The notes below the pieces were generated by a model. That model did not search any database. It was not told where the DNA came from and was given only the letters and a program-made list of their open reading frames with translations. From Escherichia phage 121Q, in the sequence record NC_025447.1: DNA of 64,000 nucleotides. One strand, 5' to 3'. The position numbers and the translations under genes are program-made. Position 1 is the stretch's first letter. The number at the start of each line of letters is the position of its first letter. Below, piece after piece: positions 1 to 44,362 of the stretch.

Positions 1-815
1 GTCATAAACAATGGAGAACTATTAGGCAAAGTACTTACAGGAACTGCACGGAATGTAGTCGTACCTGAACTAAGAAAGTTTGGAGTTTGACCACATACGA
101 AATATGATGTACCATTATAGTAATTGAATGCATTACCACCAATGGCTGCATCGATTACACCAGAACTACGCAATCCCCAAGTGTTAATTTGTGTTTGGTT
201 CCCCGTACCATGCTGTCCACTACTATTCCATCCAGAACTATATAGCTTATTATCTAATGTAAGATACATACTATCATTCGCATTGGTCATTACTTTACGA
301 ACGTTCGTAGCACATTGAGTTAATGTGTAAATTGATGAGGAACCAATACCCAAAGAACCACGATATCCATTATCTCCTGCACCATAGAGTACTGAATTAG
401 TGCTAAGTACAAATATTAAACCATTTGTACATACAATATTAGCAATTTCACTTACTGGTATAGCATTGGTAAACCAATTAGTCCTTTCAACTAATACAGT
501 ACTGTAAGAAGTAGTTGTAGAAGATGAGAACCAGTACGTTTGACCTGATGTCCATATCGTATTATCATTTTTAATAATAACAAGTGTACGATCACCCACG
601 AAAAAATTAGAAACATCTGCACTTACTAATATCCATGAAGATACCGTGTTGGTATTACCATTTCCAGATTCACCACCTTGATTTCTACCTATGTAATATA
701 AATCATGTGAATCAGTCAATAAGAATTGACCTTGTGTAGAAGCACCAACTTTAATTATATTTTTAGGACCAGGTACAATATTTCCGTACTTAACCATTCT
801 TGCAAAAGGTAACAT
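1..815 (-). CDS. RCC1-like repeat (beta-propeller) protein, paralog A; 3' end lies beyond window edge
   Basis: Reverse ORF with no stop inside window; start codon rc at 813-815; N-terminus MLPFARMVKYGN shared with the two paralogs; repeated [YW]xxGxNxxGQxGxG blades; SD GGAGGG (rc of 821-826). Confidence 0.65.
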   Translation of the reverse strand, partial: MLPFARMVKYGNIVPGPKNIIKVGASTQGQFLLTDSHDLYYIGRNQGGESGNGNTNTVSSWILVSADVSNFFVGDRTLVIIKNDNTIWTSGQTYWFSSSTTTSYSTVLVERTNWFTNAIPVSEIANIVCTNGLIFVLSTNSVLYGAGDNGYRGSLGIGSSSIYTLTQCATNVRKVMTNANDSMYLTLDNKLYSSGWNSSGQHGTGNQTQINTWGLRSSGVIDAAIGGNAFNYYNGTSYFVCGQTPNFLSSGTTTFRAVPVSTLPNSSPLFM

Positions 816-889
816 AATTCCCTCCTTTATTCATTATACTATATTTAATACAAAAAAGAAAAGCCAGTATCAAGTACTGGCATATTACA
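816..889. repeat. 74-bp intergenic repeat, copy 1 (identical to 2033-2106)
   Basis: Same sequence aattccctcctttattcattatactatatttaatacaaaaaagaaaagccagtatcaagtactggcatat at both loci; carries SD, -10-like TATAAT (minus strand) and terminator hairpin. Confidence 0.85.
852..881 (-). terminator. Rho-independent terminator (minus strand) after gene 890-2032
   Basis: Hairpin GCCAGTA-TCAAG-TACTGGC followed on the minus strand by a U-rich run (plus-strand caaaaaagaaaa). Confidence 0.6.
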
Positions 890-2032
890 TTATTTCCACG
901 GTAGAAGGGAATCGGGGACTCTGGTTGGAACTCTCACGGCTGGAACATTTCCAAGTTCAGCCAAACCACTCATATACAAATTGTTATTTTCATCAATTAT
1001 CATTGAATAGAAATTATCAATTACGAAGCCTGAAATTCGTCTTCCTTCTAATGCATCAAGAACCATTTCGGTGAAAGTTAATATATTTTCGGATGTTTGA
1101 TTAACACCACATGCACCATAGGTATTTCGACCACAAGTATATAACTTATTATTATTTTTAACAACACATCCATTCCCTTCGTTGTTGGATAAACCACCCA
1201 CCAACTCTATTTCACCTTGGAATGATAAATTGGGAATTAATGTACTCATTGGTACTGCTGATACTCTACCTACACCAGCTTGACCATATGCATTTGGTGA
1301 AGCAACCTTCACTGAACCATCATTAAGAAATATATATGAAGTACGGTATGTATTTACAGCTTGTATAGCATTGGTGATCGTATTGTCTTTTGTAAAACTT
1401 AATATATTTGATGTTGTTGTACTACCAGGAGCAACAGTATTTCCTGCATACCAATAGGAACCATCATCAAGAACTAACCCAGTACTGAGCAAAGAACAGC
1501 CATAACTTTTAACATTTTCTATAGTGCTGTATCTGAACGATGTGACATTAGCTGTTGACGCGTTACCAAATACACCACCCTCGCCAGCACCACAGTAGAA
1601 CCATTTTCCATTTTTCAAAAATACACGCAAATTCTGTCCAACAGCAATACCATCAATATCATCAGCACTGACACCAAAATCAGTGAAGTACTGGGTTACA
1701 TCAATCCAAACCCCATTTGTATTTGTTCCGATTTGTGGCATTACTATACTAGCACCTGTGAACCAAATAGTTCCATCATTCTTAATGGCAATGGAACCAA
1801 GAACACCACCCCAGTAACGTTCAATATTATTATTCACACGGGTCCATACGGTGGATGATTGTAATGAACCATTACCACCTTGTCCAAATGAAGATGAACC
1901 ATACCAGTACAAGTCACCATTAACATGCAAATAAAAACGAGTATTATAATTTGCTTGTAATCTATTTTTAAATAGAGGTTTTGGTTCTGGTGCTTCATTT
2001 CCGTACTTAACCATTCTTGCAAAAGGTAACAT
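890..2032 (-). CDS. RCC1-like repeat (beta-propeller) protein, paralog B; possible virion fibre or host-interaction protein
   Basis: 380-aa ORF; N-terminus MLPFARMVKYGN; Gly/Asn/Ser/Thr-rich blades such as YxxGxNxxGQxG; SD upstream. Confidence 0.75.
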   Translation of the reverse strand: MLPFARMVKYGNEAPEPKPLFKNRLQANYNTRFYLHVNGDLYWYGSSSFGQGGNGSLQSSTVWTRVNNNIERYWGGVLGSIAIKNDGTIWFTGASIVMPQIGTNTNGVWIDVTQYFTDFGVSADDIDGIAVGQNLRVFLKNGKWFYCGAGEGGVFGNASTANVTSFRYSTIENVKSYGCSLLSTGLVLDDGSYWYAGNTVAPGSTTTSNILSFTKDNTITNAIQAVNTYRTSYIFLNDGSVKVASPNAYGQAGVGRVSAVPMSTLIPNLSFQGEIELVGGLSNNEGNGCVVKNNNKLYTCGRNTYGACGVNQTSENILTFTEMVLDALEGRRISGFVIDNFYSMIIDENNNLYMSGLAELGNVPAVRVPTRVPDSLLPWK

Positions 2033-2106
2033 AATTCCCTCCTTTATTCATTATACTATATTTAATACAAAAAAGAAAAGCCAGTATCAAGTACTGGCAT
2101 ATCAAA
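2033..2106. repeat. 74-bp intergenic repeat, copy 2
   Basis: Identical to 816-889. Confidence 0.85.
2064..2098 (-). terminator. Rho-independent terminator (minus strand) after gene 2107-3255
   Basis: Same hairpin plus U-run as 852-881. Confidence 0.6.
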
Positions 2107-3255
2107 TCACTGCAAAAATGACATATCGACTTCGGTATAATTAAGAACGTTCTGTCCAGCAATACCTCCCATTACTACAATTGAAGCCCCACAATAATAT
2201 AACTTCGAAGTGTCAGTAAGTATAAGTGAACCAGATGGGGTGCGTACCAAATTACACGAAGTATTAAACGAAGTATATGAAGGGGTATAAGAGTACTGAT
2301 TAATATTATTACCAACACCTAATTGACCAGACGAGTTGCTTCCAGATGCATAAAGTACTTCATCACCTTTAACTATATGTGACGCCATGTTACCAACACA
2401 AGTATATAAACTATAAACTCCTGAACTCAATAATGTTGGAGTTTTGTATTGTATATCTGTAGATGAAGAAGTACCACCTGTGCCAAATTCGTTCCCGTAT
2501 TGTGCACCGAACTGTTTACCACAAGCGTACAAATTATTATCCGATTTAATAAAAAATGTACTCTGATAACTGACATTACAATCTATAACATCCGAAGAAA
2601 TCATCGTCACCCCAGTAATAGAAGTTTGATTGCCTGTACCTAACTGATAGTAATAGTTAAAACCACAACCCCATAAAGTATTATCTTCTTTTAGGTATAT
2701 GTTACCAACTGCCTTTTTAACCGAAGTTATAGTATCTACCCTTTTGAATGTGTTAAAAGAATTAATGTTTGTACCATCACCAAATGATGATAGGTTAGAG
2801 TTATTGTTAGCTCCACAACAATACAATGTACCATCGTTTGTTATCAAATTTACCTTCATATCATTAAAACTACTCATGTATTTTATATCAGAAACATTAA
2901 TACCACCTGATGTTATCCATGTAGTACAGTCCGTCCACAAAGTTTTTCTATCAGTTACACCAGTGAATGCCTTCGTGTTGCCAGTGATAAAAACTTTTCC
3001 CGTACCTTTCTCTTCGTACAATTGACAATCACTACTGTTATCTTCCAATAGAACTCGTTTAACATTCTCCGCACAAAGAATAAATTTACTCGATGCTACA
3101 CCTGTTCCAGTACCCCAATTCGTCGCAGAAGATGCATACAACTTATCAGTATAAGTATCATGAAGATACATGGAATCACTGGAATATATTTTAAAACGTC
3201 CATCATCACCAGGGGCAATATTCCCGTACTTAACCATTCTTGCAAAAGGTAACAT
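2107..3255 (-). CDS. RCC1-like repeat (beta-propeller) protein, paralog C
   Basis: ORF track gives 2107-3291; start trimmed to the Met of MLPFARMVKYGN (rc ATG 3253-3255), which has the same SD context as the paralogs; blades such as YASGSNSSGQLGVGN and WGCGFNYYYQLGTGN. Confidence 0.7.
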   Translation of the reverse strand: MLPFARMVKYGNIAPGDDGRFKIYSSDSMYLHDTYTDKLYASSATNWGTGTGVASSKFILCAENVKRVLLEDNSSDCQLYEEKGTGKVFITGNTKAFTGVTDRKTLWTDCTTWITSGGINVSDIKYMSSFNDMKVNLITNDGTLYCCGANNNSNLSSFGDGTNINSFNTFKRVDTITSVKKAVGNIYLKEDNTLWGCGFNYYYQLGTGNQTSITGVTMISSDVIDCNVSYQSTFFIKSDNNLYACGKQFGAQYGNEFGTGGTSSSTDIQYKTPTLLSSGVYSLYTCVGNMASHIVKGDEVLYASGSNSSGQLGVGNNINQYSYTPSYTSFNTSCNLVRTPSGSLILTDTSKLYYCGASIVVMGGIAGQNVLNYTEVDMSFLQ

Positions 3256-3303
3256 AATTCCCTCCTTATTCATTATATCATATTTACCCAATAAAGAAAA
3301 CCC

Positions 3304-3332
3304 TTGACATCCTTTCAGTACTGTTGTACTAT
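3304..3332 (+). promoter_or_regulatory. sigma70-like promoter for small-gene array 1
   Basis: TTGACA, 17-nt spacer containing CAGTACTG, TACTAT; divergent from the RCC1 genes. Confidence 0.55.
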
Positions 3333-3357
3333 AGAAGGAATATAAGGAGAACTACAC

Positions 3358-3585
3358 ATGACAAATACTCTTAAGTACTACCTCAATACTCTAAATGAAC
3401 TAGAGTACGGGGAGTTTCTCTCGGATAGTTCGTGGCTAATTGAGCTAAAAAATTATAATAGTCCAGGATGCACCCTTATGATGAACAATGCAATTGATAC
3501 CCTCATTGTGAGTATTTTACACAGCAACATCTGCGGGGATAGCAATAAACAATTATCAAAAATCTTAGTACTGCTATCTATATGA
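3358..3585 (+). CDS. family-1 small protein (~60-75 aa tandem paralog)
   Basis: SD AAGGAG; first gene of array. Confidence 0.6.
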   Translation: MTNTLKYYLNTLNELEYGEFLSDSSWLIELKNYNSPGCTLMMNNAIDTLIVSILHSNICGDSNKQLSKILVLLSI

Positions 3586-3785
3586 ATATCGAACAGTACT
3601 ACATCGATGCACTACCAACAAAAGGTCTACGAGAAAGCCTACTGTATACACAAAATACTATTATACACTACAAACGTTGTCCTAAACTCCTGAACTCGTA
3701 CAGGAATAATATCATAAGAAATGCTTTACAAGGGGCAGAAAGTATGCAATACTATTATATCCTTGCCCTTTTAATCGAGTACTAA
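3582..3785 (+). CDS. family-1 small protein
   Basis: ATGA stop/start overlap; C-terminus ...LALLIEY. Confidence 0.6.
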   Translation: MNIEQYYIDALPTKGLRESLLYTQNTIIHYKRCPKLLNSYRNNIIRNALQGAESMQYYYILALLIEY

Positions 3786-3786
3786 T

Positions 3787-3996
3787 ATGAATACTGAACA
3801 TAAAGAATTCTACACCAAATACCTTAGCAACGAAGAACAATTGTTTCTAAGGAGTGTATCACCTTTAAGTATAGATACACCACACGCCAGAGATTGCTTT
3901 AATAATTGTATACGTAGTACTCTAGAAGCAATCGAATGTAATAACAAAAATATTATGTACTCTGGTTTAATAGGACTAATATATTTCTATGAATAA
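3787..3996 (+). CDS. family-1 small protein
   Basis: N-terminus MNTEHKEFY; abuts previous stop. Confidence 0.6.
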   Translation: MNTEHKEFYTKYLSNEEQLFLRSVSPLSIDTPHARDCFNNCIRSTLEAIECNNKNIMYSGLIGLIYFYE

Positions 3997-4183
3997 TCAT
4001 AAAGATTTCTATTGTAGTAAACTACCCAAACAAGAACAGCTATCATTCTCTTTAGCACCACCTATGAGAAAGGATAATCTGTATTATAATTACGATTTCA
4101 GGATGGTGACACGTTATGCAATAGAACATACGTTCCCTGCAACTAAGTACCGCTCTATCCTGAACCTCATCTTTAAGTTCTAA
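3989..4183 (+). CDS. family-1 small protein
   Basis: N-terminus MNNHKDFY; overlaps previous gene end. Confidence 0.6.
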   Translation: MNNHKDFYCSKLPKQEQLSFSLAPPMRKDNLYYNYDFRMVTRYAIEHTFPATKYRSILNLIFKF

Positions 4184-4235
4184 AAGGTACACCAGGGACC
4201 GAGTACTTTAATATAGTAAGGCTAATTACATTATA

Positions 4236-4421
4236 ATGAATCATATAAGCTACTACTACCAACAACTATCCGACAGAGACAAGTACAGTCACAACTCCCA
4301 TGTGTGGTACTACAAACGCGGCAGTATAAGAGACAAACAACATTACTTCTGTATTTCTATTAAAGAAGCACTAACAACTAAGTACACGTACCGAGCAGTA
4401 CTTAAACTTATTGAAATGTAA
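4236..4421 (+). CDS. family-1 small protein
   Basis: Array member; C-terminus KLIEM. Confidence 0.55.
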   Translation: MNHISYYYQQLSDRDKYSHNSHVWYYKRGSIRDKQHYFCISIKEALTTKYTYRAVLKLIEM

Positions 4422-4429
4422 GGAAGAAA

Positions 4430-4612
4430 ATGAATATAGAATTCTATTTAACTAAACTACAACACGCCGAAAGATTCAACTTCAATAAGTTCAATATTTT
4501 CTACAATTGCGGGAACAAAAAAGATAAACACACCTTCCTATATGTCGTCACAAGAGATGCACAAAACGAAAAGTACACATACAGAGAAGTAATGAAACTA
4601 ATCGCTATTTAA
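4430..4612 (+). CDS. family-1 small protein
   Basis: Array member; C-terminus MKLIAI. Confidence 0.55.
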   Translation: MNIEFYLTKLQHAERFNFNKFNIFYNCGNKKDKHTFLYVVTRDAQNEKYTYREVMKLIAI

Positions 4613-4620
4613 GGAATACT

Positions 4621-4800
4621 ATGCAACAATTCTATATAGAACGTATAACCATAAAAGACCGTTTCATGTACGACACCTTCGTTGATTACTACAACCTAGG
4701 AACAAAAAGTACTAAAAATATTAATCTCAATAGCTGCATTTATGCTGTACTAACACAAGATAATCCCTACAGGGAAATCCTCGCACTGGCATCTATATAA
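4621..4800 (+). CDS. family-1 small protein (59 aa, below ORF-track cutoff)
   Basis: ATG 4621 after SD AAGGAA; translated by hand MQQFYIERITIKD...ILALASI; fills a gap in the array. Confidence 0.5.
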   Translation: MQQFYIERITIKDRFMYDTFVDYYNLGTKSTKNINLNSCIYAVLTQDNPYREILALASI

Positions 4801-4810
4801 AGGAAACCAA

Positions 4811-5482
4811 ATGAAACTTAATGCACACAGCAAACAATACCTTAAGCACTTTAAGTACCTCAATAGTATTCAGGCAGAATCCGTTACATCTGCATATACG
4901 TATCACCCGAATGTACTAAAGAAACGAAATAAAAAGGAAAAATCCAGTACAAATGGAGTTAACGTATCAAAGAACCTTGAATTGTACATGAAGAAAAATA
5001 ATATAGCTGTTCATTATATGAATATCTATAATACTGATTTAAAAGTATTGAGTACTAATACGAGCACGAAGGTACTAAAGAACGCATCCTTCATCATCAA
5101 TATGCAGTTGGATAATACCCCGTGCACTTTAATGCTATACTTCGGGAATACATACTTCTTCGGGAATTGTAACACCTCCCACGATGTCAATACAGCACAA
5201 TTCCAAATGGGTGGCATATACTCTACTGATGCAGAAAAAGTACACGAGAATATGCACTTCTGGCAAGCACAACGTACAGAAGAAACTAAATCAATTGTAG
5301 ATTTCCTCAAAGAACTAGAACACAAAGAACTACAGGAAGAAGAACTATTCATGTACAGTACTGTAATCGATAATCCAGTACTCTATAAAAACGCGTACAA
5401 TCTGACAAAACATGTACAGGAAATTATCAGTACTAATAAGAAAATGCATCACCTCATTACGTATATTACAAACTATGTATAA
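4811..5482 (+). CDS. hypothetical protein (223 aa) embedded in array 1
   Basis: Long ORF; SD AAGGAAACC; no family motif recognised. Confidence 0.55.
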   Translation: MKLNAHSKQYLKHFKYLNSIQAESVTSAYTYHPNVLKKRNKKEKSSTNGVNVSKNLELYMKKNNIAVHYMNIYNTDLKVLSTNTSTKVLKNASFIINMQLDNTPCTLMLYFGNTYFFGNCNTSHDVNTAQFQMGGIYSTDAEKVHENMHFWQAQRTEETKSIVDFLKELEHKELQEEELFMYSTVIDNPVLYKNAYNLTKHVQEIISTNKKMHHLITYITNYV

Positions 5483-5657
5483 AGAATACTATATCTCTAA
5501 ACTACCCGTGCAGCAAAAATACTTTGCTGCATACAAAGTTCTTCTCATAACTCGTGCCGCTCGATCTAACTACATGAATAGCGTAAAACGTGCTATAGAA
5601 AATGATGACGCAATGAACCAGTACTATAACATTTTACTACTAATATATAAGTACTAA
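5475..5657 (+). CDS. family-1 small protein
   Basis: Start trimmed from 5412 to MYKEYYISKLP, overlapping the stop of the previous gene. Confidence 0.55.
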   Translation: MYKEYYISKLPVQQKYFAAYKVLLITRAARSNYMNSVKRAIENDDAMNQYYNILLLIYKY

Positions 5658-5667
5658 AGAGAACAAC

Positions 5668-5850
5668 ATGCACAAAGAATACTACAGGGATAAAATACCT
5701 ATGCATCTCCAGCACCATATACCAACAGAACCAATAGGAATAAAAGATCACGCAAAGATAATGTTCCAACAATGTACTAAGTACACGCTCATATACGATG
5801 ATAATCCATATATGCTGTACTACGTAGTAATGCTAACATTCAGGTACTAA
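5668..5850 (+). CDS. family-1 small protein
   Basis: MHKEYY...MLTFRY. Confidence 0.6.
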   Translation: MHKEYYRDKIPMHLQHHIPTEPIGIKDHAKIMFQQCTKYTLIYDDNPYMLYYVVMLTFRY

Positions 5851-5851
5851 T

Positions 5852-6043
5852 ATGAATAACCACAAAGAATACTACATAGAGAAACTCCCAATGTATCTCC
5901 AACACCTTGTACCAACAGAACCATTGGGTATAGAAAAAAACTACGAAAAAGACTACTTCATTCAGTGCACTAAATCCTCGATATATATTGAAGACTATAA
6001 TCGAGTACTGTATCACATCCTTTTACTAATATATAAGTACTAA
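5852..6043 (+). CDS. family-1 small protein
   Basis: MNNHKEYY...LLLIYKY. Confidence 0.6.
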   Translation: MNNHKEYYIEKLPMYLQHLVPTEPLGIEKNYEKDYFIQCTKSSIYIEDYNRVLYHILLLIYKY

Positions 6044-6044
6044 T

Positions 6045-6227
6045 ATGCACAAAGAATACTACACACAATTTCTCCCCAGCATTTTTGAACACTACGCCAG
6101 ATATAAAGTCCCTCTGGATAACGATTTGGCAGTACTGGGATTCAATAACTGCATAGAACGAAGTATAGAAAATAGTAGTAGTTATGACCAGCTATATAAC
6201 ACTATCCTACTTATATTCAGGTACTAA
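6045..6227 (+). CDS. family-1 small protein
   Basis: MHKEYY...ILLIFRY. Confidence 0.6.
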   Translation: MHKEYYTQFLPSIFEHYARYKVPLDNDLAVLGFNNCIERSIENSSSYDQLYNTILLIFRY

Positions 6228-6228
6228 C

Positions 6229-6417
6229 ATGCATAAAGAATACTACACAAAATATTTCCCAATGTACCTCAGAACTAATCTATTAGATAAACCTCGCGGT
6301 ATCAATGCACAAAATGATAAAGTGTATTTTACTATGTGCACTAAAGCATGTATACTAGATTTTGACAGCTACCATCGAGTACTGTATCATACCCTGTACC
6401 TAGCTTTCGTATTCTAA
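6229..6417 (+). CDS. family-1 small protein
   Basis: Start trimmed from 6184 to MHKEYYTKYFP, immediately after previous stop. Confidence 0.6.
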   Translation: MHKEYYTKYFPMYLRTNLLDKPRGINAQNDKVYFTMCTKACILDFDSYHRVLYHTLYLAFVF

Positions 6418-6426
6418 GAGAACAAT

Positions 6427-6612
6427 ATGCATAAAGAATTCTACTTAAGCCATCTGGATCTAAACTCCCAAATGCTTATACCACTAATCCCAATAGATAT
6501 CAAGGATAAGAAAAATACCGAACAATTCATTTACCATACACAGTGTGCGATCACCCCAAATTACATTCCATATGAATTGTACTACATTCTCGCCCTAATA
6601 TATAGGTACTAA
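6427..6612 (+). CDS. family-1 small protein
   Basis: MHKEFY...LALIYRY. Confidence 0.6.
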   Translation: MHKEFYLSHLDLNSQMLIPLIPIDIKDKKNTEQFIYHTQCAITPNYIPYELYYILALIYRY

Positions 6613-6613
6613 T

Positions 6614-6799
6614 ATGCATAGAGAATACTACACACAATTTGTTAAAGGGAACTACAAACATGCCGTACCCAGAACCCCTTTAAATTCTCATGACCCAAGT
6701 ACTATATTCTTGTTTAATGACGCAATACGTACAGTACTCAATACTAAAGATGAAGATGTGCAGTACGTATTCTTACTATTACTTATATACAGACACTAA
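6614..6799 (+). CDS. family-1 small protein
   Basis: MHREYY...LLLIYRH. Confidence 0.6.
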   Translation: MHREYYTQFVKGNYKHAVPRTPLNSHDPSTIFLFNDAIRTVLNTKDEDVQYVFLLLLIYRH

Positions 6800-6804
6800 C
6801 TAAT

Positions 6805-6987
6805 ATGAATAAAGAACATAAAGAATTCTATATAAGAAAACTAACATTCGTCCCCGTAAGAATATATAAAGAATGCGACCCAAGATTATACCTATGGCAC
6901 TTCAATGAGTGCATAAAAGATTCTATATACCCTAAGAACTATAAAGAACAATTGTGCTCAGTACTAACACTAGTACTATCATATTAA
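6805..6987 (+). CDS. family-1 small protein
   Basis: MNKEHKEFY...TLVLSY. Confidence 0.6.
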   Translation: MNKEHKEFYIRKLTFVPVRIYKECDPRLYLWHFNECIKDSIYPKNYKEQLCSVLTLVLSY

Positions 6988-7002
6988 TTAATAGAGAATA
7001 CT

Positions 7003-7194
7003 ATGTATAAAAACTTCTATATAAGTAAACTAAAAGAAAATGAACAAGTATGGATTAGATCTATAATTCCACTGGCATTTAATAGATATGCATTTAACAG
7101 ATGTACCGAGATTGCTATAGACCCTTATAATATTAAAGAGAATGTACAGTATAATCAGTACTACTATATCTTAATGCTTATATATAGGAAGTAA
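7003..7194 (+). CDS. family-1 small protein (last of array)
   Basis: MYKNFYISKL...LMLIYRK. Confidence 0.6.
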   Translation: MYKNFYISKLKENEQVWIRSIIPLAFNRYAFNRCTEIAIDPYNIKENVQYNQYYYILMLIYRK

Positions 7195-7289
7195 TTAAAC
7201 ACAAGTAGACAGGGGAAGCTCCTAGTGAACAACCTTTATGTACAGGCGAATTGTTAAAATTCAGCCTGGACAAATGCGATCACTAGGAT

Positions 7290-7400
7290 TCTCCCCAGGC
7301 TAAACCCCGTAATCATAGGTAGTCATAAGTAATCATATATAAACATTTAAGTAATCATTTATAATCACTGTAGTGATCAGTAGTGATCAGTAGTGAGTAC
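7290..7400. repeat. Cluster of short direct repeats (GTAATCA x4; AGTAGTGA x3)
   Basis: cgtaatcatagg...agtaatcatatat...agtaatcattta...gtagtgatcagtagtgatcagtagtgagtact. Confidence 0.6.
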
Positions 7401-7821
7401 TAGAGTACAGGAATGTTCACGTTTAATCAAGAACGTAGCAGTACTGATATGCCACTAAGTAGGCAGAGGAAGTCTGCCGTACTTTGTAGTTTCCAAGCTC
7501 CTTTTCCATTTTGCAAATTACATCAAATGTAATCAAAAGTAATCACGCAATGATTAGTACTGAATTATTACTTTCACCTTAATTTCAATTACCCCTTTAC
7601 CCTTCGGGGTAAAATTCAATTACCCCTTGAGGCTCCAGCAAAAAGTTGGTTAGTACTCCATCCTAAATCTCGATCCTAAAAATTTTGGAGTACCTATGAA
7701 ATAAAAGTTGGATCTTCGAAAGTTGAAATTTACGTTGGGACATATAGGATTTGTGGGATATAATGAGTTTTGTAGCGATACAGATTATACGATTTCAGTA
7801 CTGAATAATGAAAGAAAGCTA

Positions 7822-27677: not shown

Positions 27678-27707
27678 TTGACTTTTTATACAATTCATAT
27701 ATTATAT
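27678..27707 (+). promoter_or_regulatory. promoter-like element upstream of array 2
   Basis: TTGACT, 17-nt spacer, ATTATA. Confidence 0.4.
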
Positions 27708-27735
27708 GATTGATATTATTTTCAAGGGAGTCCCT

Positions 27736-27933
27736 ATGCGTATTTTAACTCAAGCAGAACACCACGAAAGACTTATCAATAACATGGCTATGATAATGTA
27801 TAAGTCACATGAACGTGGTATTGCCTATAAGCGTGAATTAATTATGGCACTATTCATTGGAACTAACTTTCAGGAAAGGTATGTCAAGGATTGGATTTGG
27901 TATTTAATTGAAGATGTAACGAGTAAACTATGA
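27736..27933 (+). CDS. family-2 small protein (~70 aa)
   Basis: Start trimmed to ATG 27736 after SD AGGGAG; core FIGTNFQERYV. Confidence 0.6.
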   Translation: MRILTQAEHHERLINNMAMIMYKSHERGIAYKRELIMALFIGTNFQERYVKDWIWYLIEDVTSKL

Positions 27934-28130
27934 AAATGCGTAAATTAACCGAAAAAGAATATCAAGCACTGTTACGTAAAAACTTCACAAAGATTTATAA
28001 TACAGACTCACACGTAGAACGAATGGAGTTATACCTTTTGATTACATTGGGAACTAACTATCAGGATGCATGGGTAACGAAATATGTGGATACATTGAAA
28101 AATGAAATTTTGTCCACGAGGAAACAATGA
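27930..28130 (+). CDS. family-2 small protein
   Basis: ATGA coupling; core LGTNYQDAWV. Confidence 0.65.
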   Translation: MKMRKLTEKEYQALLRKNFTKIYNTDSHVERMELYLLITLGTNYQDAWVTKYVDTLKNEILSTRKQ

Positions 28131-28336
28131 AAACTATAACACGAACCCAATCATTCGGACTTATCTTGTAATACATGGACTTAATGGTGGATATCAGCAA
28201 AGACCTGCCTAAAACTGCAATTGAAGTTGCAAGAGCAGAGATCCGCATGTTGGCTGTACTGAACACAAACCATCAGGAAGAGTATGTTGACGATTGGATT
28301 CGATTTTTAATAGAAGATATTAAGAGTAAACTATGA
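28127..28336 (+). pseudogene. family-2 member interrupted by in-frame TAA
   Basis: Family-like frame starts at ATG 28127 (MKTITRTQSFGLIL), hits TAA at 28169-28171, then continues in the same frame to a family C-terminus (...MLAVLNTNHQEEYVDDWIRFLIEDIKSKL). Confidence 0.45.
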
Positions 28337-28545
28337 TTATATTAACACCTGAAGAATATAAGAAACGTTTTAAATCTGTCCAGGCTGAAATATTACTTAT
28401 ATACCTTTCAAATGCAGATCTTAACTTATCAAGGGTAATGGAGAAGGATTTACTTATGGGTGCATTTTTGGATACAGACTTTCAGGAGTATTATGTAGGG
28501 GAATACTTTATTGCACTTCAGAACCACATTAAGAGTAAACTATGA
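28333..28545 (+). CDS. family-2 small protein
   Basis: ATGA coupling; core FLDTDFQEYYV. Confidence 0.65.
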   Translation: MIILTPEEYKKRFKSVQAEILLIYLSNADLNLSRVMEKDLLMGAFLDTDFQEYYVGEYFIALQNHIKSKL

Positions 28546-28757
28546 TTATTCTAGAAAAATCATATCAATATACTGAACGCATCGCTGCCAGACAACTTGA
28601 AATCCTCATAATATACGAAGATACTTCTGATTTAAACTTAGCTGAGGTATTGGAAAATGAAATACTTTTGGGTGCATTCTTGGGAACAGACTATCAGGAG
28701 TATTATGAGGAAAAGTATTTGTCATCTCTTGAGAAATACATCAGGAGCAAATTATGA
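28542..28757 (+). CDS. family-2 small protein
   Basis: Coupled; core FLGTDYQEYY. Confidence 0.65.
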   Translation: MIILEKSYQYTERIAARQLEILIIYEDTSDLNLAEVLENEILLGAFLGTDYQEYYEEKYLSSLEKYIRSKL

Positions 28758-28990
28758 AAGTCATTACTGACTTTGAATATAAGGCTCGCTCAGTGAGTGC
28801 AGCGAAGAAAGAGAACACCATCTACCTCACGATGCAAGACATAGAATGGGATAAAATTGAAGAGATGGTTGCTGAAGTATGGCTTGACGCGTTCATGGAT
28901 ACACAGTATCAAAATACGTTCATAGGTAAGTATCTAAATGTTATTATGAAGCACATAGAAAGGAAATCAGCAAATGCGTCACTTAAATGA
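28754..28990 (+). CDS. family-2 small protein
   Basis: Coupled; core FMDTQYQNTF. Confidence 0.6.
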   Translation: MKVITDFEYKARSVSAAKKENTIYLTMQDIEWDKIEEMVAEVWLDAFMDTQYQNTFIGKYLNVIMKHIERKSANASLK

Positions 28991-29231
28991 TGATGAATAT
29001 TCAAAAAGAGTCAAAAAACTTACTCCGAATGCAAGACTAATCTACGATGACGGTGAACTTTCATGGAACGAGATGAAAGTGAAAGTTCATGAGCTATGGT
29101 TGCTGTACTTTATTGGGACTCAATATCAAGAGAAATATTGCACAGACTTCATAGAACAACTAATGGAACTTATACAGGAAAAAGTAAATGAAAGCATCAT
29201 CGCAAAATATAAAAACTTTATCAAGCACTGA
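28974..29231 (+). CDS. family-2 small protein
   Basis: Core FIGTQYQEKY. Confidence 0.6.
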   Translation: MRHLNDDEYSKRVKKLTPNARLIYDDGELSWNEMKVKVHELWLLYFIGTQYQEKYCTDFIEQLMELIQEKVNESIIAKYKNFIKH

Positions 29232-29460
29232 GTATCAAACTGCCCTCTTCTCCCTTCTAAACACTCTCCGCACGAACAATAAACTTTATAATTCCCGTGA
29301 AGCTGATATCGTCAACGGTGATGTGTTTCTTATGAAATTTATAGGAACGAACTATCAAGAAATGTTTGTTCTACGATACATCTCTGCACTGAGAAATCAA
29401 GTTCAAGAAAAAACCCGCCAAGCCCAAAGAGAATGGAAGAGACAATGCAACAAAGACTAA
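29188..29460 (+). CDS. family-2 small protein (start uncertain)
   Basis: Core FIGTNYQEMFV; the 44-nt overlap with the upstream gene suggests a later start. Confidence 0.5.
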   Translation: MKASSQNIKTLSSTEYQTALFSLLNTLRTNNKLYNSREADIVNGDVFLMKFIGTNYQEMFVLRYISALRNQVQEKTRQAQREWKRQCNKD

Positions 29461-29696
29461 ATCACAAAATGTATTTTAAACTATTACAGAATCTGGGACA
29501 AAAACACTATGATACAGTATCTGAAATATTACCCTATGATATCATGCGTTTAATTCATAGTGAGGCAGAGATGCTTGTACTGATGACAGGCACTGATAAA
29601 ACAGCAATTACCAAATCTATAGATATGTTCATCGATGCACACTGCCAACACATTAGAACCGAGATATGGAGACGTGAGAATGAAAATCCTGACTGA
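29433..29696 (+). CDS. family-2 small protein (divergent)
   Basis: Core MTGTDKTAITK; array position. Confidence 0.5.
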   Translation: MEETMQQRLNHKMYFKLLQNLGQKHYDTVSEILPYDIMRLIHSEAEMLVLMTGTDKTAITKSIDMFIDAHCQHIRTEIWRRENENPD

Positions 29697-29895
29697 GCAT
29701 GAGTATTACAATAGGTTAAGAACTATACAAGGAAAAGTCTCGTGGACTTTTTTAGATAATTCTATTGCAGAAGCGGACCGATGTGTTATAATAGCTGAAA
29801 TGAAGCTATTACTCTTCATTGGGACAAACTATCAAAGTATCTACATAGACGCATGGTTAAGCAGCTTACGTCTGAAGTCGGTGAGTTTAAAATGA
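29680..29895 (+). CDS. family-2 small protein
   Basis: Start trimmed to ATG 29680 (MKILTEHEY); core FIGTNYQSIY. Confidence 0.6.
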   Translation: MKILTEHEYYNRLRTIQGKVSWTFLDNSIAEADRCVIIAEMKLLLFIGTNYQSIYIDAWLSSLRLKSVSLK

Positions 29896-30110
29896 GAAAA
29901 TTAATAGGTTTCGAATATGTTAAGCTTCTACAAACCTGTGGAATCAGAAGGAGAATGATTCAAAAGGATAAAAGAATTGCCGAAGAACGAAAGTATATAA
30001 TGATAACTGAACTTTATGTCTTAACACTCTTAGGCACAAACTATCAACACACTTATGTAGACCTATGGATCGATGCACTACAGAAAGAGGTTAAAAGTAA
30101 ATGCAAATGA
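29892..30110 (+). CDS. family-2 small protein
   Basis: Start trimmed to ATG 29892 (MRKLIGFEY); core LLGTNYQHTYV. Confidence 0.6.
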   Translation: MRKLIGFEYVKLLQTCGIRRRMIQKDKRIAEERKYIMITELYVLTLLGTNYQHTYVDLWIDALQKEVKSKCK

Positions 30111-30331
30111 TTATTTTAACTTACATTGAATATCAAAAACGTTTAAATGCATCCAGAGACATAAGGATTCAAATATTCAATAACAAAAGATTGAAGCCTG
30201 ATATCAGGAAAATCAAAATCATAGAAGCAGAGTTGTGCAACTTTCTAGGGACGAACTATCAGGCAGGTAAGGTAGAAAACTATCTTATAGAACTCATGAA
30301 TAGTATTGAAAATAAATGTAAGGGTAATTAA
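30101..30331 (+). CDS. family-2 small protein
   Basis: Core FLGTNYQAGKV. Confidence 0.6.
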   Translation: MQMIILTYIEYQKRLNASRDIRIQIFNNKRLKPDIRKIKIIEAELCNFLGTNYQAGKVENYLIELMNSIENKCKGN

Positions 30332-30332
30332 C

Positions 30333-30599
30333 ATGAAAATGATCAATTTAAGTAAAGATGAATATAACGAGCGACGTGCAAAAATCTCAACTAAACGCAC
30401 CGAAATCTATTACAGCGAAGAAATCAAACACGACAAGAAGATGATTATGATACGTGAGTTGATAATGGGTGCTATGCTAGGAACTAACTATCAAGAACAA
30501 GAGGTACAACTCGTATTAAATGAATTACTAATGGAAATCAGAGGTAAGCTGTACTTTCATCAAATGACCCGCCCACTAAGGTGTACTAGGAATGATTAA
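30333..30599 (+). CDS. family-2 small protein
   Basis: Start trimmed to ATG 30333; core MLGTNYQEQEV. Confidence 0.6.
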   Translation: MKMINLSKDEYNERRAKISTKRTEIYYSEEIKHDKKMIMIRELIMGAMLGTNYQEQEVQLVLNELLMEIRGKLYFHQMTRPLRCTRND

Positions 30600-30807
30600 C
30601 ATCACATTACAAGAAAGGTTCATACGCATCAACTATGCAATTTCCAAATTAGATGCTACAATAGGATTTCAAAGTCTACCATTCAAAACAAGAATGATAT
30701 TAGAGTGTGAAGCCAAGTTAGGTGTACTGTTAGGGACGCAACACCAACAACGATATGTGGAAATCTGGATTGACCTTTTAACCCAAAATATATATGAGAG
30801 AATGTAA
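30592..30807 (+). CDS. family-2 small protein
   Basis: Core LLGTQHQQRYV. Confidence 0.6.
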   Translation: MINITLQERFIRINYAISKLDATIGFQSLPFKTRMILECEAKLGVLLGTQHQQRYVEIWIDLLTQNIYERM

Positions 30808-31044
30808 ATGCAAAATGAAATGATATACTTAACACCTGCTGAGTTAACAGAAAGACTAGTTAAATCCAGAAGATATACAAATCAACTTCCTCACAACCCA
30901 AACCAGACCCCAGCCGAAAGGAGTGCAGAAGTTTTATTCCAATCACTACCATACCTTCTTGGAACTAATAGACAAGAGTATCATATCGAACGTATAATTA
31001 AATATCTTAAAATTACTATTAAGGAAAAAGTAAATGCAAAATGA
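30808..31044 (+). CDS. family-2 small protein (recent duplicate of 31034-31279)
   Basis: MQNEMIYLT...LPYLLGTNRQEYHIERIIKYLKITIKEK, near-identical to next gene. Confidence 0.65.
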   Translation: MQNEMIYLTPAELTERLVKSRRYTNQLPHNPNQTPAERSAEVLFQSLPYLLGTNRQEYHIERIIKYLKITIKEKVNAK

Positions 31045-31279
31045 AATGATATACTTAACATATAATGAATACGTCGAGAGATTAGTTAGTGCCAAGAGAT
31101 ATGCCAATCAACTTCCTAATGATCCAAACCAAACCCCAGAGGAAAAGAATGCGGAAGCTCTATTCCAAGCACTACCATACCTTCTTGGAACTGATAGGCA
31201 GGAGTATCACGTTGAACGTATAATTAAATCTCTTAAAATCACTATTAAGGAAAAGATACATGAAACACTTGACAGATGA
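31034..31279 (+). CDS. family-2 small protein (recent duplicate of 30808-31044)
   Basis: MQNEMIYLT...LPYLLGTDRQEYHVERIIKSLKITIKEK. Confidence 0.65.
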   Translation: MQNEMIYLTYNEYVERLVSAKRYANQLPNDPNQTPEEKNAEALFQALPYLLGTDRQEYHVERIIKSLKITIKEKIHETLDR

Positions 31280-31490
31280 TGAACATGGGCTTATAGTAAT
31301 GGATGTAATCAACATCGAATACAAAAAGTTGATACGCTACCGTTGTTATGAAGATAAGCAACTAGTTCTAGCAGAACAGAAGTTGTTTCGACTCTTAAAC
31401 ACAAACTACCAAGCACAATACGAAGAATCGTATATGTACCTTTTGGCGAGGAAAGCAAAAAGAGATTATGAAAATTTTAAGCAAAGGTGA
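31260..31490 (+). CDS. family-2 small protein
   Basis: Core LLNTNYQAQY. Confidence 0.6.
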   Translation: MKHLTDDEHGLIVMDVINIEYKKLIRYRCYEDKQLVLAEQKLFRLLNTNYQAQYEESYMYLLARKAKRDYENFKQR

Positions 31491-31689
31491 TTCAGTAATA
31501 TTACTTATAGAGAGTTCAAGTAAATTCTTAAACATAACACTGTCTGATATAGATGAAGATGATAAAGAAGTACTGAGAGCAGATTTAAGAGTACTGTTAC
31601 ATCTCGGAACAAACCTACAAGAAGAATATGTAGAGTGCTACATCAATGAACTTAAAGAATCAGTACTGAGAAGATGCAAATGCAAATGA
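31468..31689 (+). CDS. family-2 small protein
   Basis: Core HLGTNLQEEYV. Confidence 0.6.
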   Translation: MKILSKGDSVILLIESSSKFLNITLSDIDEDDKEVLRADLRVLLHLGTNLQEEYVECYINELKESVLRRCKCK

Positions 31690-31907
31690 AAATGATTACC
31701 GACGAAGAATACCTAACAATTATAAATGGATTGTTTTTGAAGTTGTTTGTTATTAACACATCAGATATACCAGATATGGATAAAATTATTAAGAGAAATG
31801 AAATCTATGTTCTAGCTACCCTGGGAACTAACTATCAAGAATACGATATTAATGATTATATTAATACACTTAAACGAGCGATTGAACTAAAATGCCAAAA
31901 CCACTAG
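31674..31907 (+). CDS. family-2 small protein
   Basis: Core TLGTNYQEYDI. Confidence 0.6.
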   Translation: MQMQMKMITDEEYLTIINGLFLKLFVINTSDIPDMDKIIKRNEIYVLATLGTNYQEYDINDYINTLKRAIELKCQNH

Positions 31908-32107
31908 GAACAGCAGAATACATTGAACTCATGGGATTACACTTCTCATCCTTTCAGAAACTTATGCGAGAATCAAAGAATGATTTAGAATATACCATCA
32001 GAGGTTCAGATTTAAGAATGCTTCTCACCCTAGACACAGATTCCCAAGAGCGTTTTGTCAATGAGCACATTAGAGCACTTTTAATGGAAATTCAAAGTAA
32101 ACTATGA
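31892..32107 (+). CDS. family-2 small protein
   Basis: Core TLDTDSQERFV. Confidence 0.6.
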   Translation: MPKPLGTAEYIELMGLHFSSFQKLMRESKNDLEYTIRGSDLRMLLTLDTDSQERFVNEHIRALLMEIQSKL

Positions 32108-32319
32108 AGGTAATATCAAACCAAGAGTACTTGGCACTATTCAGGAAGAATAATCACAAATATATGGCACTTGATTCAAGAACTGATATAAGTGAACTTG
32201 AAAAAAATCTTTTGCGTTCAGAGATGATAGTACTGACACTCTTAGGAACACAGCATCAAGAAAGAACTGTTAATTCACACATAGAAATACTTAAGAAGCT
32301 TATACAGGAAAAGTTATGA
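32104..32319 (+). CDS. family-2 small protein
   Basis: Core LLGTQHQERTV. Confidence 0.6.
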   Translation: MKVISNQEYLALFRKNNHKYMALDSRTDISELEKNLLRSEMIVLTLLGTQHQERTVNSHIEILKKLIQEKL

Positions 32320-32537
32320 GAATCATAACACAACAAGATATTCTTAAGTTCACAAGGGTTCATGCATCTGAATTTGATGCTATATTATCAAAAAGTTACA
32401 ACAACCCTTATACAGAAGATGTACACTACAATGAATTATGGGTGTATATACTTTTAGGTACAGATCATCAAGAGCAAGCCGTACAGAGGTATTTGAGTGC
32501 TTTAAGTACTGCTACTGCTAATGGAGTATGTGTTTAA
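32316..32537 (+). CDS. family-2 small protein
   Basis: Core LLGTDHQEQAV. Confidence 0.6.
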   Translation: MRIITQQDILKFTRVHASEFDAILSKSYNNPYTEDVHYNELWVYILLGTDHQEQAVQRYLSALSTATANGVCV

Positions 32538-32538
32538 T

Positions 32539-32781
32539 ATGAAAGTACTATCTGAATTAGAAATGCATAATAGATTATACAAGTACTACCATTTACTTAA
32601 ACCTATACAGAGGATTAAGTGTCCCTTTGAAGTGAAACAGGTTTTAATTTATGAGCATAAGTTCTTTGTATCATTAGGTACGAACCATCAAGAGTACTTT
32701 TTGAAGTTGTACTTGATTACATTAATAGATTTAATTCACTATAAAACCAAACAAGCTAATAAAGAGAAATATGAAAACTAA
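32539..32781 (+). CDS. family-2 small protein
   Basis: Start trimmed to ATG 32539; core SLGTNHQEYFL. Confidence 0.6.
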   Translation: MKVLSELEMHNRLYKYYHLLKPIQRIKCPFEVKQVLIYEHKFFVSLGTNHQEYFLKLYLITLIDLIHYKTKQANKEKYEN

Positions 32782-41268: not shown

Positions 41269-41646
41269 ATGGAAATAAAATATAATGAATTTTGTGCAAG
41301 GACATGGATGTACACTGGTGAGTTAGTTACGCACTCTAACTTATACAAGGGTGATTTAAACTACGCCAGGGACAAGATTTTAAAGTACTGGAATGCTGAC
41401 TTTTATTTGATGGATTTTAGTACTGGGTTTAGGGGTAAAGCAACCGAGATGTTGGACTATACAGTACTTGATGATGCTGCACTGTTTCAGGAGGCATTAG
41501 TATTTGATAAGAAGTACATCTGTACATTAGAAGAGATGATTGAATTACAGCGTAGAATTAAATGTATTCACAGGGAATGTATAGATATCTGGTGCAGTAC
41601 TGGTGAAGATAATTTTTGTAATCATTTCAATCTAGGGGAAGTGTGA
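41269..41646 (+). CDS. family-3 protein
   Basis: Start trimmed to ATG 41269; core DDAALFQEALVFDKKYICT. Confidence 0.6.
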   Translation: MEIKYNEFCARTWMYTGELVTHSNLYKGDLNYARDKILKYWNADFYLMDFSTGFRGKATEMLDYTVLDDAALFQEALVFDKKYICTLEEMIELQRRIKCIHRECIDIWCSTGEDNFCNHFNLGEV

Positions 41647-41870
41647 TGGAATTTGATTTTTTAATATCAGTACATACGGTCAAGGGTGCACCTCAGTACC
41701 TTTGTAATTTAAACAAAGGTGATTTGATTATGGATACAGATACAGAGGTTGTATACAGTTCTAATGTTCTGTGCAAGGAATTTCAGAATTCGAAAATGCT
41801 TGAGTTATTGTGCATTGCTGATTGTAATATTCTGTACAAATTCAGTACTAATCTGAAGGAGATTTTATGA
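41643..41870 (+). CDS. hypothetical protein (75 aa); N-terminus paralogous to 42235
   Basis: MEFDFLISVHTVKG...CNLNKGDL as in the 42235 protein. Confidence 0.55.
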   Translation: MMEFDFLISVHTVKGAPQYLCNLNKGDLIMDTDTEVVYSSNVLCKEFQNSKMLELLCIADCNILYKFSTNLKEIL

Positions 41871-42235
41871 AAAAAGAAATTAGAATCCAATTCGGTATGA
41901 GGAAAAAAGAGGTCATCTGTACACTGAATCATGCGGACGTGGAAATGGGTGGTGCATTACAAAAATTCTCACATTTTGTTCTTGTACTATATGAAAATGG
42001 GTCTTTTAAAATCTTCACATATGATGATTCAAAAAATTACCGTAATGATTTTGTAAATCTTACAGTACTGTCAGAAGAGGAATTCTTTCAGGAAAGTACT
42101 GTCTGGAATTTACAAGGAGCACCAATTGAATACGTCCGTGCTACACAGGTAGAGATGATCAAAACAATGCAGAACTATCCAGAAGATTATATGACTAAGT
42201 TTCATGAATCTTTTAATGTAGAGGTTGAGTACTGA
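41867..42235 (+). CDS. family-3 protein
   Basis: Core SEEEFFQESTVWN. Confidence 0.6.
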   Translation: MKKEIRIQFGMRKKEVICTLNHADVEMGGALQKFSHFVLVLYENGSFKIFTYDDSKNYRNDFVNLTVLSEEEFFQESTVWNLQGAPIEYVRATQVEMIKTMQNYPEDYMTKFHESFNVEVEY

Positions 42236-42591
42236 TGGAATTTGATTTTTTAATATCAGTACATTCTTTTAAGCACAGTTTTCAGTACTTTTGTAATTTA
42301 AACAAAGGTGATTTAATGCACAGTGCGAATGAGTATATTCATTTTACTGATGGTAAATTCTCATTTATTGATTACAGTTCATTAGATTTTCCATACACTG
42401 ATATGCCGGACTATACATTGATGGATGCTGGTGAACTATTTCAAGCTGCATTAGTATTTGACAAGAAGTACATCTGTACATTTGAAGAAGTAATTACTAT
42501 ACAAAATGAAATGAAGGTGTATGCATCGTTGAATAAACCTAATGAATGTATTAATCAAGAATACAAATTCAATATAGGAATTCCAAAATGA
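42235..42591 (+). CDS. family-3 protein
   Basis: Core DAGELFQAALVFDKKYICTFEE. Confidence 0.6.
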   Translation: MEFDFLISVHSFKHSFQYFCNLNKGDLMHSANEYIHFTDGKFSFIDYSSLDFPYTDMPDYTLMDAGELFQAALVFDKKYICTFEEVITIQNEMKVYASLNKPNECINQEYKFNIGIPK

Positions 42592-43451: not shown

Positions 43452-43452
43452 A

Positions 43453-44360: not shown

Positions 44361-44362
44361 TA

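Follow-up and report, generated by a model that had tools for sequence, protein, structure and literature searches.

A tandem family of small genes beside the terminal repeat of Escherichia phage 121Q and its whole-gene turnover among Asteriusvirus phages

A long run of small genes of similar size, laid end to end on one strand, raises the question of whether the genes form a family, how they are maintained and what they do for the phage. Such an array lies at 3358–7194 on the plus strand of a 64,000-nucleotide (nt) stretch of the genome of Escherichia phage 121Q (NC_025447.1), the whole of which is referred to here as the window. An earlier inspection of this DNA from its letters alone (the sequence-only reading) described seventeen back-to-back genes, sixteen of them paralogs of about 60 residues, with a longer gene embedded among them. 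The open reading frame (ORF) listing and direct reading of the sequence bear out this layout, and the coordinates of the embedded gene (4811–5482) are exact: there are 17 contiguous ORFs, sixteen of 59–75 amino acids (aa) and one of 223 aa, and coding density is 97%, with 122 of 3837 nt non-coding. The array is a real and well delimited multigene family, previously undescribed as such, and it evolves by gain, loss and movement of entire genes.

Membership of the family was judged from leave-one-out hidden Markov models (HMMs) and from profile-profile comparison with hhalign; members are named here by their first coordinate. Eleven core members (3787, 3989, 5475, 5668, 5852, 6045, 6229, 6427, 6614, 6805 and 7003) are recovered at E values of 7e-8 to 2e-20, a family signal far above chance, and ORFs 3582, 4236, 4430 and 4621 at 4e-4 to 2e-6. 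An HMM built from the core only barely detects these outliers (E ~0.05) and hhalign gives weak links when the window sequences are used alone. With orthologs from relatives added, the core aligns over its full length both with subfamily B (4236, 4430 and 4621; E 4.7e-6, 86% probability) and with the 3582 ortholog group (E 5.3e-6, 86% probability), and a core-like copy situated within the B cluster in phages E9.1, WPEC5 and BF17 bridges the two subfamilies. Because the leave-one-out HMMs and the ortholog-enriched comparisons link them, we take 15 of the 16 small ORFs to be paralogs. The first ORF (3358–3585) has a leave-one-out E value of 0.28 and hhalign values of 0.016–0.078, below significance, and could be either a very divergent member or unrelated; the earlier count of sixteen paralogs therefore stands for fifteen ORFs and not for this one. 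No additional member was found by the family HMM in a six-frame translation of the window.

The copies are old. Paralogs share 26–48% protein identity with a reference core member (the outliers 10–25%), there is little DNA identity among copies, and the window contains no near-identical pair of the kind that recent amplification (a gene accordion) leaves behind. The core corresponds to phrog_11711 of PHROGs v4, as the five core members tested match it end to end (E 1.2e-27 to 3.1e-12, each spanning positions 1–62 of 62), and the 223-aa gene corresponds to phrog_29152; neither PHROG carries a function. ORFs 3358, 3582 and 4430 gave no phrog_11711 match at E <= 0.01, and the PHROG misses the divergent subfamilies (3582; 4236/4430/4621), which can be reached only by profile-profile comparison. 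The motifs proposed in the sequence-only reading hold in part: the N-terminal one is present as [HYN]-K-[ED]-[YF]-Y in 11 members and does not extend beyond the core, the C-terminal one as [IL/T]-[YF]-[KR]-x in only about eight members, and the central cysteine occurs in 74% of 73 family sequences.

The region has many close relatives. Window positions 3300–7300 are 97.9% identical, over the full length, to Escherichia phages vB_EcoM_G17 (G17) and Sharanji, and 34 records match it, all from jumbo phages of E. coli or Salmonella in the genus Asteriusvirus (the PBECO4/121Q group, ~350 kb); in all annotated records, including G17, 121Q, slurp01 and phAPEC6, the genes beneath the match are labeled 'hypothetical protein'. 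The two ends of the G17 genome are identical over 20,668 bp, a direct repeat corresponding to window 7458–27638, in agreement with the ~21-kb terminal repeats demonstrated experimentally for fEgEco12 (PMC13070987). The array lies in unique sequence, stops 264 nt short of the repeat's inner boundary and is transcribed toward the repeat.

Comparison of the window with the corresponding loci of G17, slurp01, E9.1, SD-15_S21, WPEC5, BF17 and A4 (eight genomes in all; CMSTMSU, an unverified and frameshift-ridden record, was excluded from counts) shows that the array evolves through whole-gene birth, death and relocation among close relatives. Copy number does vary, which the sequence-only reading had put forward for checking: the arrays hold 16–23 genes, of which 15–22 are small, with 11–14 core and 2–5 subfamily B copies per genome. 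Clustering at 70% identity yields 32 ortholog groups, only eight of which are universal: the 223-aa gene and seven small genes, one of these being the last of the array. Every difference between arrays consists of the insertion or deletion of an entire gene, and in WPEC5 and BF17 one ortholog group occupies a different position. Among the eight genomes, gene 5475 occurs in the window and G17 only. A death can be seen in the window itself, where the 52-nt spacer at 4184–4235 preserves the 3′ end of a lost gene; G17 (as G17_00065), slurp01, WPEC5, BF17 and A4 have this gene whole, and pairwise alignment with G17 traces the stump to a ~168-nt deletion between short AAGGT repeats. Tandem paralogs beside a terminal repeat, with repertoires differing by entire genes, are the pattern of a terminal multigene family undergoing birth-and-death evolution.

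The array genes are real and are under purifying selection that is about twofold relaxed relative to their neighbors. Concatenated orthologs give a ratio of nonsynonymous to synonymous substitution rates (dN/dS) of 0.23–0.39 at dS of 0.04–0.32 in seven phage comparisons, as against 0.18 for the neighboring RCC1-like gene and 0.05–0.17 for four informative terminal-repeat genes (a fifth has just 3 substitutions). In each of the eight good-quality genomes the small ORFs are uninterrupted. These ratios and the intact frames therefore exclude a non-coding repeat and set the degree of relaxation, and together with the PHROG family they uphold the earlier description of the array as paralogous protein-coding phage genes. 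Two members, 3989 and 5852, have dN/dS near 1, on ~20–27 substitutions each. Codon usage is also distinctive, with TAC used for 62% of tyrosines (44% elsewhere in the window), TTC for 75% of phenylalanines (40% elsewhere) and a preference for the C-ending histidine codon, and this preference for C-ending codons fits efficient translation. On the coding strand the array has a GC skew of -0.17, opposite to that of the other plus-strand genes of the window, and a strongly positive AT skew; the inverted GC skew results from the low proportion of G-starting codons (18.6% in the array vs 28.6%) and from the C-ending tyrosine, phenylalanine and histidine codons.

The genes are tightly packed (Table 1). 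The 16 junctions comprise three overlaps (-4, -8 and -8 nt), five 1-nt spacers, seven spacers of 5–15 nt that carry weak purine-rich tracts, and the 52-nt spacer. Four of the 1-nt spacers have exactly the sequence GTACTAATATG (TAC-TAA-T-ATG) and the fifth is GTACTAACATG (a TAACATG variant), so that the order at the four exact junctions is stop, one nucleotide and start, and not stop, three nucleotides and start as previously described. The last part of one copy together with the first part of the following one forms a conserved junction of ~35 nt (…ATATATAAGTACTAATATGCACAAAGAATACTAC…). For ORFs 5475 and 6229 there are longer upstream in-frame ATGs, and the starts used are backed by the family alignment and the G17 annotation.

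Table 1. Coordinates of array genes and of predicted flanking elements in the window (pI, isoelectric point).
Feature	Coordinates	Strand	Evidence or remark
Predicted sigma70-type promoter, TTGACA-17 nt-TACTAT, AGTACTG box in spacer	3304..3332	+	promoter scan
Shine-Dalgarno AAGGAG, 8 nt upstream of first ATG	3344..3349	+	direct reading; invariant in 8 phages
ORF 1, 75 aa, pI 4.7	3358..3585	+	family link not demonstrable; first gene in all relatives
ORF 2, 67 aa, overlapping ORF 1 at ATGA; divergent family member	3582..3785	+	hhalign E 5.3e-6
Core member, 69 aa	3787..3996	+	phrog_11711 E 2.1e-13; leave-one-out E 9e-13
Core member, 64 aa; 8-nt overlap with preceding gene	3989..4183	+	leave-one-out E 6e-11
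Remnant, last ~50 nt of deleted family gene (ortholog G17_00065)	4184..4235	+	G17 alignment
Subfamily B member, 61 aa	4236..4421	+	HMM and hhalign
Subfamily B member, 60 aa	4430..4612	+	HMM and hhalign
Subfamily B member, 59 aa	4621..4800	+	HMM and hhalign
Embedded unrelated gene, 223 aa	4811..5482	+	phrog_29152 E 5e-156; mid-array in every relative
Core member, 60 aa, start MYKEYY; 8-nt overlap with 223-aa gene	5475..5657	+	phrog_11711 E 3.1e-12
Core member, 60 aa	5668..5850	+	leave-one-out E 7e-15
Core member, 63 aa, protein modeled with AlphaFold 2	5852..6043	+	phrog_11711 E 1.2e-27
Core member, 60 aa	6045..6227	+	phrog_11711 E 2.2e-24
Core member, 62 aa, start MHKEYY	6229..6417	+	leave-one-out E 8.5e-9
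Core member, 61 aa	6427..6612	+	leave-one-out HMM
Core member, 61 aa	6614..6799	+	leave-one-out HMM
Core member, 60 aa	6805..6987	+	leave-one-out HMM
Core member, 63 aa; last array gene in all relatives	7003..7194	+	phrog_11711 E 7.1e-24
Predicted long imperfect hairpin (GGGGAAGCTCCTAGTGA ... TCACTAGGATTCTCCCC), just past array	7212..7296	+	RNA fold 7195-7500, z = -3.95
Terminator-like hairpin GGCAGAGGAAGTCTGCC and T-rich tail	7462..7478	+	terminator scan; at inner repeat boundary 7458

The proteins vary around a constant framework. An AlphaFold 2 model of the 5852–6043 product, made from a 73-sequence alignment (predicted local distance difference test score, pLDDT, 90.6; predicted template modeling score 0.76), has helices at residues 3–9, 14–17, 30–45 and 49–62 and a loop at 18–29 with a conserved Pro-Leu, and so confidently predicts a fold of two short N-terminal helices and a two-helix hairpin. 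Low-entropy columns of the family alignment are K5, E6, Y/F7, Y8, L12, Q17, P24, L25, F36, C39, T/I40, I/L44, Y/L53, Y54, L57, L59, I60 and Y/F61, and the positions between them are highly variable. The scaffold, that is the hydrophobic core and both termini, is conserved, and surface positions, loops and net charge vary, with pI spanning 4.7–9.6 across the family. Tyrosine is the commonest residue (11.4%).

Database searches return the family from one phage lineage. Profile searching against 5.8 billion clustered proteins gave 68 clusters at 90% identity, mostly of 59–70 aa (range 41–98), none of which has a Pfam domain; those with a named source are from Asteriusvirus-type phages or E. coli assemblies. 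Exhaustive HMMER searching of 1.84 billion representatives at 50% identity gave 31 matches, of which 29 (41–69 aa) are true and two are repetitive false positives. A metagenomic contig with a divergent member has the same locus architecture, a single-protein search for related loci found one IMG/VR contig, and complete E. coli genomes gave no megablast match. Since the searches of clustered proteins return lineage-type members only, the family is confined to the Asteriusvirus lineage, and the protein has neither a sequence nor a fold relative beyond the genus. Ten array proteins gave nothing above threshold in Pfam, NCBIfam and PADLOC scans, and a sequence-profile search of the PDB gave no match; nor was sequence or fold similarity found to characterized host-takeover or anti-defense proteins with solved structures (such as AsiA, Gp2, Ocr and Acr). 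A PADLOC match of ORF 4430 to PDC-S19 (E 0.01) is noise, 19 other subfamily members having no match, and its sub-threshold Pfam matches (MjAgo_N-like, EC042_2821) were treated likewise. The words 'paralog' and 'tandem' are absent from the Sharanji, fEgEco12 and phAPEC6 papers, and array organization and turnover are unmentioned in the Asteriusvirus papers checked.

The embedded 223-aa protein likewise has homologs confined to the Asteriusvirus lineage and has no Pfam, NCBIfam or PADLOC match. Its C-terminus is superficially family-like and the family HMM gives no match, so that it was rejected as a member; its best hhalign E value against the other arrays of the window is 0.009. Its AlphaFold 2 model (pLDDT 43) is unusable.

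Upstream of the first gene is a predicted promoter whose -35, AGTACTG and -10 elements are invariant in the eight genomes, with few varying spacer positions, while gene 1 itself falls to 59% aa identity (in A4). The arrangement, with conserved hexamers spaced 17 nt apart (within the usual 16–18 nt) upstream of the first gene, is that expected of a sigma70 early operon. The window contains 17 copies of the combination TTGACA-N(4-9)-AGTACT where 0.08 would be expected. Of the 17, 14 are on the plus strand in the terminal repeat in the form TTGACA-N9-AGTACTG-TATAAT with A/T-rich upstream tracts; this design, common to the array and the 14 repeat promoters, puts the array promoter in the same class. 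In the related phage PA5oct, RNA-seq shows most terminal-repeat genes to be early, and the phage is dependent on its host's RNA polymerase (PMC7318152). The Rak2-like phage CBB has a short-ORF region and RpoD-like promoters beside and within its terminal repeat, which have been interpreted as serving early host takeover (PMC5259590). Targeted full-text searching and the papers on Asteriusvirus and related phages yielded no expression data for any Asteriusvirus. A second promoter-like element (TTGACA-17-TATCAT with an AGTACTG box) is present inside gene 6229–6417, at 6362–6390, and could be either an internal promoter or a chance match.

What the array does is less easily answered. The reading that we favor, and to which we would give an even chance, is that it is an early, translationally coupled operon of diversifying proteins that bind host targets, a function that we infer. 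Host sigma70 RNA polymerase would start at 3304–3332 early in infection, alongside the terminal-repeat promoters of the same class, and produce a single mRNA of ~4 kb; ribosomes would load at the strong first Shine-Dalgarno and re-initiate across the overlapping and 1-nt junctions. The conserved ~35-nt junction would supply in-register homology at which unequal recombination changes copy number. Each paralog would be small and act stoichiometrically, binding or inhibiting a host protein in the course of host takeover or counter-defense, and the diversity of copies would broaden the range of host variants that the phage can handle. The different copy sets of related phages suggest just such a fast-evolving set of early, host-directed proteins.

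Several points weigh against this reading. Early timing is drawn from promoter class and from analogy with other phages, and host-directed function from inference; the -10 hexamer (TACTAT) is non-consensus and the AGTACTG spacing differs from that of the terminal-repeat promoters. The searches found no similarity to any characterized host-takeover or anti-defense protein. The mean dN/dS below 1 signifies constraint and not an arms race, the near-1 values of 3989 and 5852 coming from few substitutions, and several members are 98–100% identical across phages, unlike the uniform rapid diversification that might be expected. The products could also play a part in the virion, as virion mass spectrometry easily misses small proteins.

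The main rivals are each weakened by specific results. One is that the copies are largely dispensable duplicates with little or no function, the jumbo capsid tolerating extra DNA while unequal recombination expands and contracts the array. We consider this unlikely: the small share of universal groups (8 of 32), the widely varying presence and absence of genes, the decaying remnant at 4184–4235 and the relaxed constraint would all be accommodated, but the dN/dS values, the reading frames kept open in every good-quality genome, the conserved promoter and Shine-Dalgarno, the seven small-gene groups retained in all phages, the well-defined fold with its conserved core and the bias to C-ending codons argue otherwise. 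A role as nucleic-acid-binding regulators, for example recognizing AGTACT(G) in promoters and terminators and modulating the early-to-middle transcription switch, would make sense of the recurrence of AGTACTG in promoters (the array's own included) and in terminator stems, and of the basic character of nine of the 16 small proteins (pI >= 8.8), and yet strikes us as distinctly improbable. Many small phage proteins act at membranes, and the hydrophobic C-terminus noted in the sequence-only reading, with segments rich in L, I and Y (e.g. LYHILLLIYKY), would accord with membrane-active factors concerned with superinfection exclusion, lysis control or toxicity. The maximum 19-residue Kyte-Doolittle mean is however <= 1.18 in all 17 proteins, so that no transmembrane segment is predicted, and the C-terminal hydrophobic runs are of 8–10 residues and are broken by Y, K, R or H. 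The grand average of hydropathy is negative in 15 of the 16 small proteins, among them every family member (the exception, at +0.14, is the first ORF, which has no demonstrable link to the family), no N-terminus resembles a signal peptide, and AlphaFold 2 packs the C-terminal helix into the compact globular fold. The 'hydrophobic C-terminus' is therefore best seen as the last helix of a soluble mini-domain and not as a membrane anchor, and the chances of a membrane-active role are very slim.

Scarcely better are the prospects of the proteins being internal to the virion or ejected from it, carried alongside the DNA and passed into the cell. The phAPEC6 counterparts of the upstream RCC1-like genes, gp549 and gp551, are virion-associated, and the phAPEC6 inner body is made of unidentified proteins, but no array product is in the list of 62 phAPEC6 virion proteins (PMC7247149). 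The sigma70-type promoter of the terminal-repeat class also suggests early rather than late expression, and the array is transcribed divergently from the RCC1-like genes. That the locus is a non-coding DNA repeat of ~190 bp (iterons, or a packaging or replication element) in which the ORFs are incidental is suggested by its adjoining the terminal-repeat boundary and its richness in the AGTACT palindrome, and is effectively refuted by copies that resemble one another as proteins (25–48% identity) and little as DNA, by synonymous change in excess of nonsynonymous change, and by indels that remove or add only whole genes and leave every frame intact.

Known systems offer partial parallels to an operon of host-directed binders. 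Phage host-takeover modules include SPO1 gp37–60 in the terminal redundancy, the T5 pre-early genes in the terminal repeat, and small early T4 ORFs such as AsiA, Alc and Arn. These modules, and the early regions inferred in CBB and PA5oct, resemble the array in their clusters of very small ORFs without known ancestry, situated in or next to a terminal repeat, in host-type sigma70 promoters, in tight packing and in translational coupling, which in the array is presumed. Such modules consist mostly of unrelated genes, whereas 15 of the 17 array genes are paralogs of one predicted fold; no sequence or fold likeness of the array proteins to the characterized members was found, and their early timing is likewise presumed. 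Phage anti-defense islands and small anti-defense proteins (Acr, Ocr, Tad and similar) are, like the array, small, lineage-restricted accessory genes with fast turnover in a variable region between collinear genomes, expressed early (as the array would be). The array matches no known anti-defense or defense family and lacks an Aca-type regulator.

Another formal parallel is found in large eukaryotic DNA viruses. The MGF110, MGF360 and MGF505 families of African swine fever virus (ASFV) and the terminal host-range families of poxviruses modulate host range and immune evasion, and poxviruses form gene accordions (K3L). As in the array, tandem paralogs lie beside terminal repeats, copy number and repertoire vary among close strains, and whole genes are gained and lost by unequal recombination, a mechanism that would also apply to the array. 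The likeness is one of analogy without homology, and a host-range role of the array would be an extension of it; an accordion moreover represents recent, near-identical amplification, whereas the array copies are diverged. It is possible, although we hold this only tentatively and think it doubtful, that the Asteriusvirus terminal repeat is bracketed by unrelated birth-and-death families, and that the array is a library built on one novel mini-protein scaffold with diversified surfaces, each copy neutralizing a different variant of a host defense or factor, as a counterpart of the ASFV and poxvirus terminal families.

If the paralogs are host-directed binders, the family would constitute a compact natural library in which a single 60-residue scaffold, apparently of new fold, appears in ~30 or more sequence types; new inhibitors of proteins or defense systems of E. 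coli and Salmonella could be sought in it by screening. Large phages would then resemble large eukaryotic DNA viruses in their use of terminal multigene families that vary in copy number, with a bearing on host-range adaptation of jumbo phages, which are candidates for therapy. Whatever it does for the phage, the locus lends itself well to the study of how phage genes arise and are lost through the proposed in-register unequal recombination, and it marks strain-level variation in Asteriusvirus genomes.

Between the array and the terminal repeat are several non-coding features. The hairpin just past the last gene may be a 3′ mRNA structure; its 3′ arm is invariant among relatives and its 5′ arm varies without compensation, and because of the latter the fold is to be regarded as a prediction. 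A block of 98 nt (7252–7349) is identical in the eight genomes except for one substitution common to WPEC5 and BF17. It sits ~110–200 nt before the terminal-repeat boundary between variable flanking genes and has no Rfam match; candidate roles are those of a signal for packaging or of the boundary, of a small RNA or of an mRNA element at the 3′ end. Just before the boundary, at 7370–7408, is a tandem repeat (GTAGTGATCA x2.5, then GAGTACTAGAGTAC) that is variable among relatives, and the terminator-like hairpin at the boundary is kept in most of them. Over the window as a whole, neither Rfam models at their gathering thresholds nor a search for tRNA genes gave any match.

The surroundings contain further gene families. 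On the minus strand, window 1–3291 encodes three tandem RCC1-like paralogs ('regulator of chromosome condensation'/'DNA condensation protein'), divergent from the array. The terminal repeat is gene-poor in its first ~1.5–2 kb (7458 to ~9100) and is otherwise packed with small plus-strand genes, many of which have their own promoter and terminator. A tandem family of at least 21 paralogs of 53–90 aa with the motif LGTNYQE occupies 27706–32781 (plus 46857–47244), beginning 68 nt past the other boundary of the terminal repeat, and there are additional families of 7 members (74–125 aa; 41269–42947 and elsewhere) and 6 members (146–164 aa; 42957–45281 and elsewhere). The 21-, 7- and 6-member plus-strand families show no relation to the ~60-aa family by hhalign, which rules them out as its distant relatives and agrees with the earlier remark that several unrelated arrays share the window, there being at least three others.

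Word usage is unusual across the window. There are 264 copies of AGTACT, ~12x the mononucleotide expectation, and 636 of GTAC, 1.6x the second-order Markov expectation. The sequence-only reading regarded the AGTACT palindrome as built into the gene junctions, but only 3 of the 23 array copies are at gene ends, the others being in all three codon phases. The word also forms part of terminator stems (e.g. CAGTACTG...CAGTACTG) and of the promoters, and its abundance is genome-wide, linked at least in part to these elements and no by-product of junctions. It is densest at 6000–28000 and absent at 28–30 kb and 34–40 kb. GCGC is absent from the 64 kb (~45 expected by a second-order Markov model), and CCGG (0.48x) and GATC (0.60x) are depleted, which suggests that certain restriction or methylation sites are strongly avoided.

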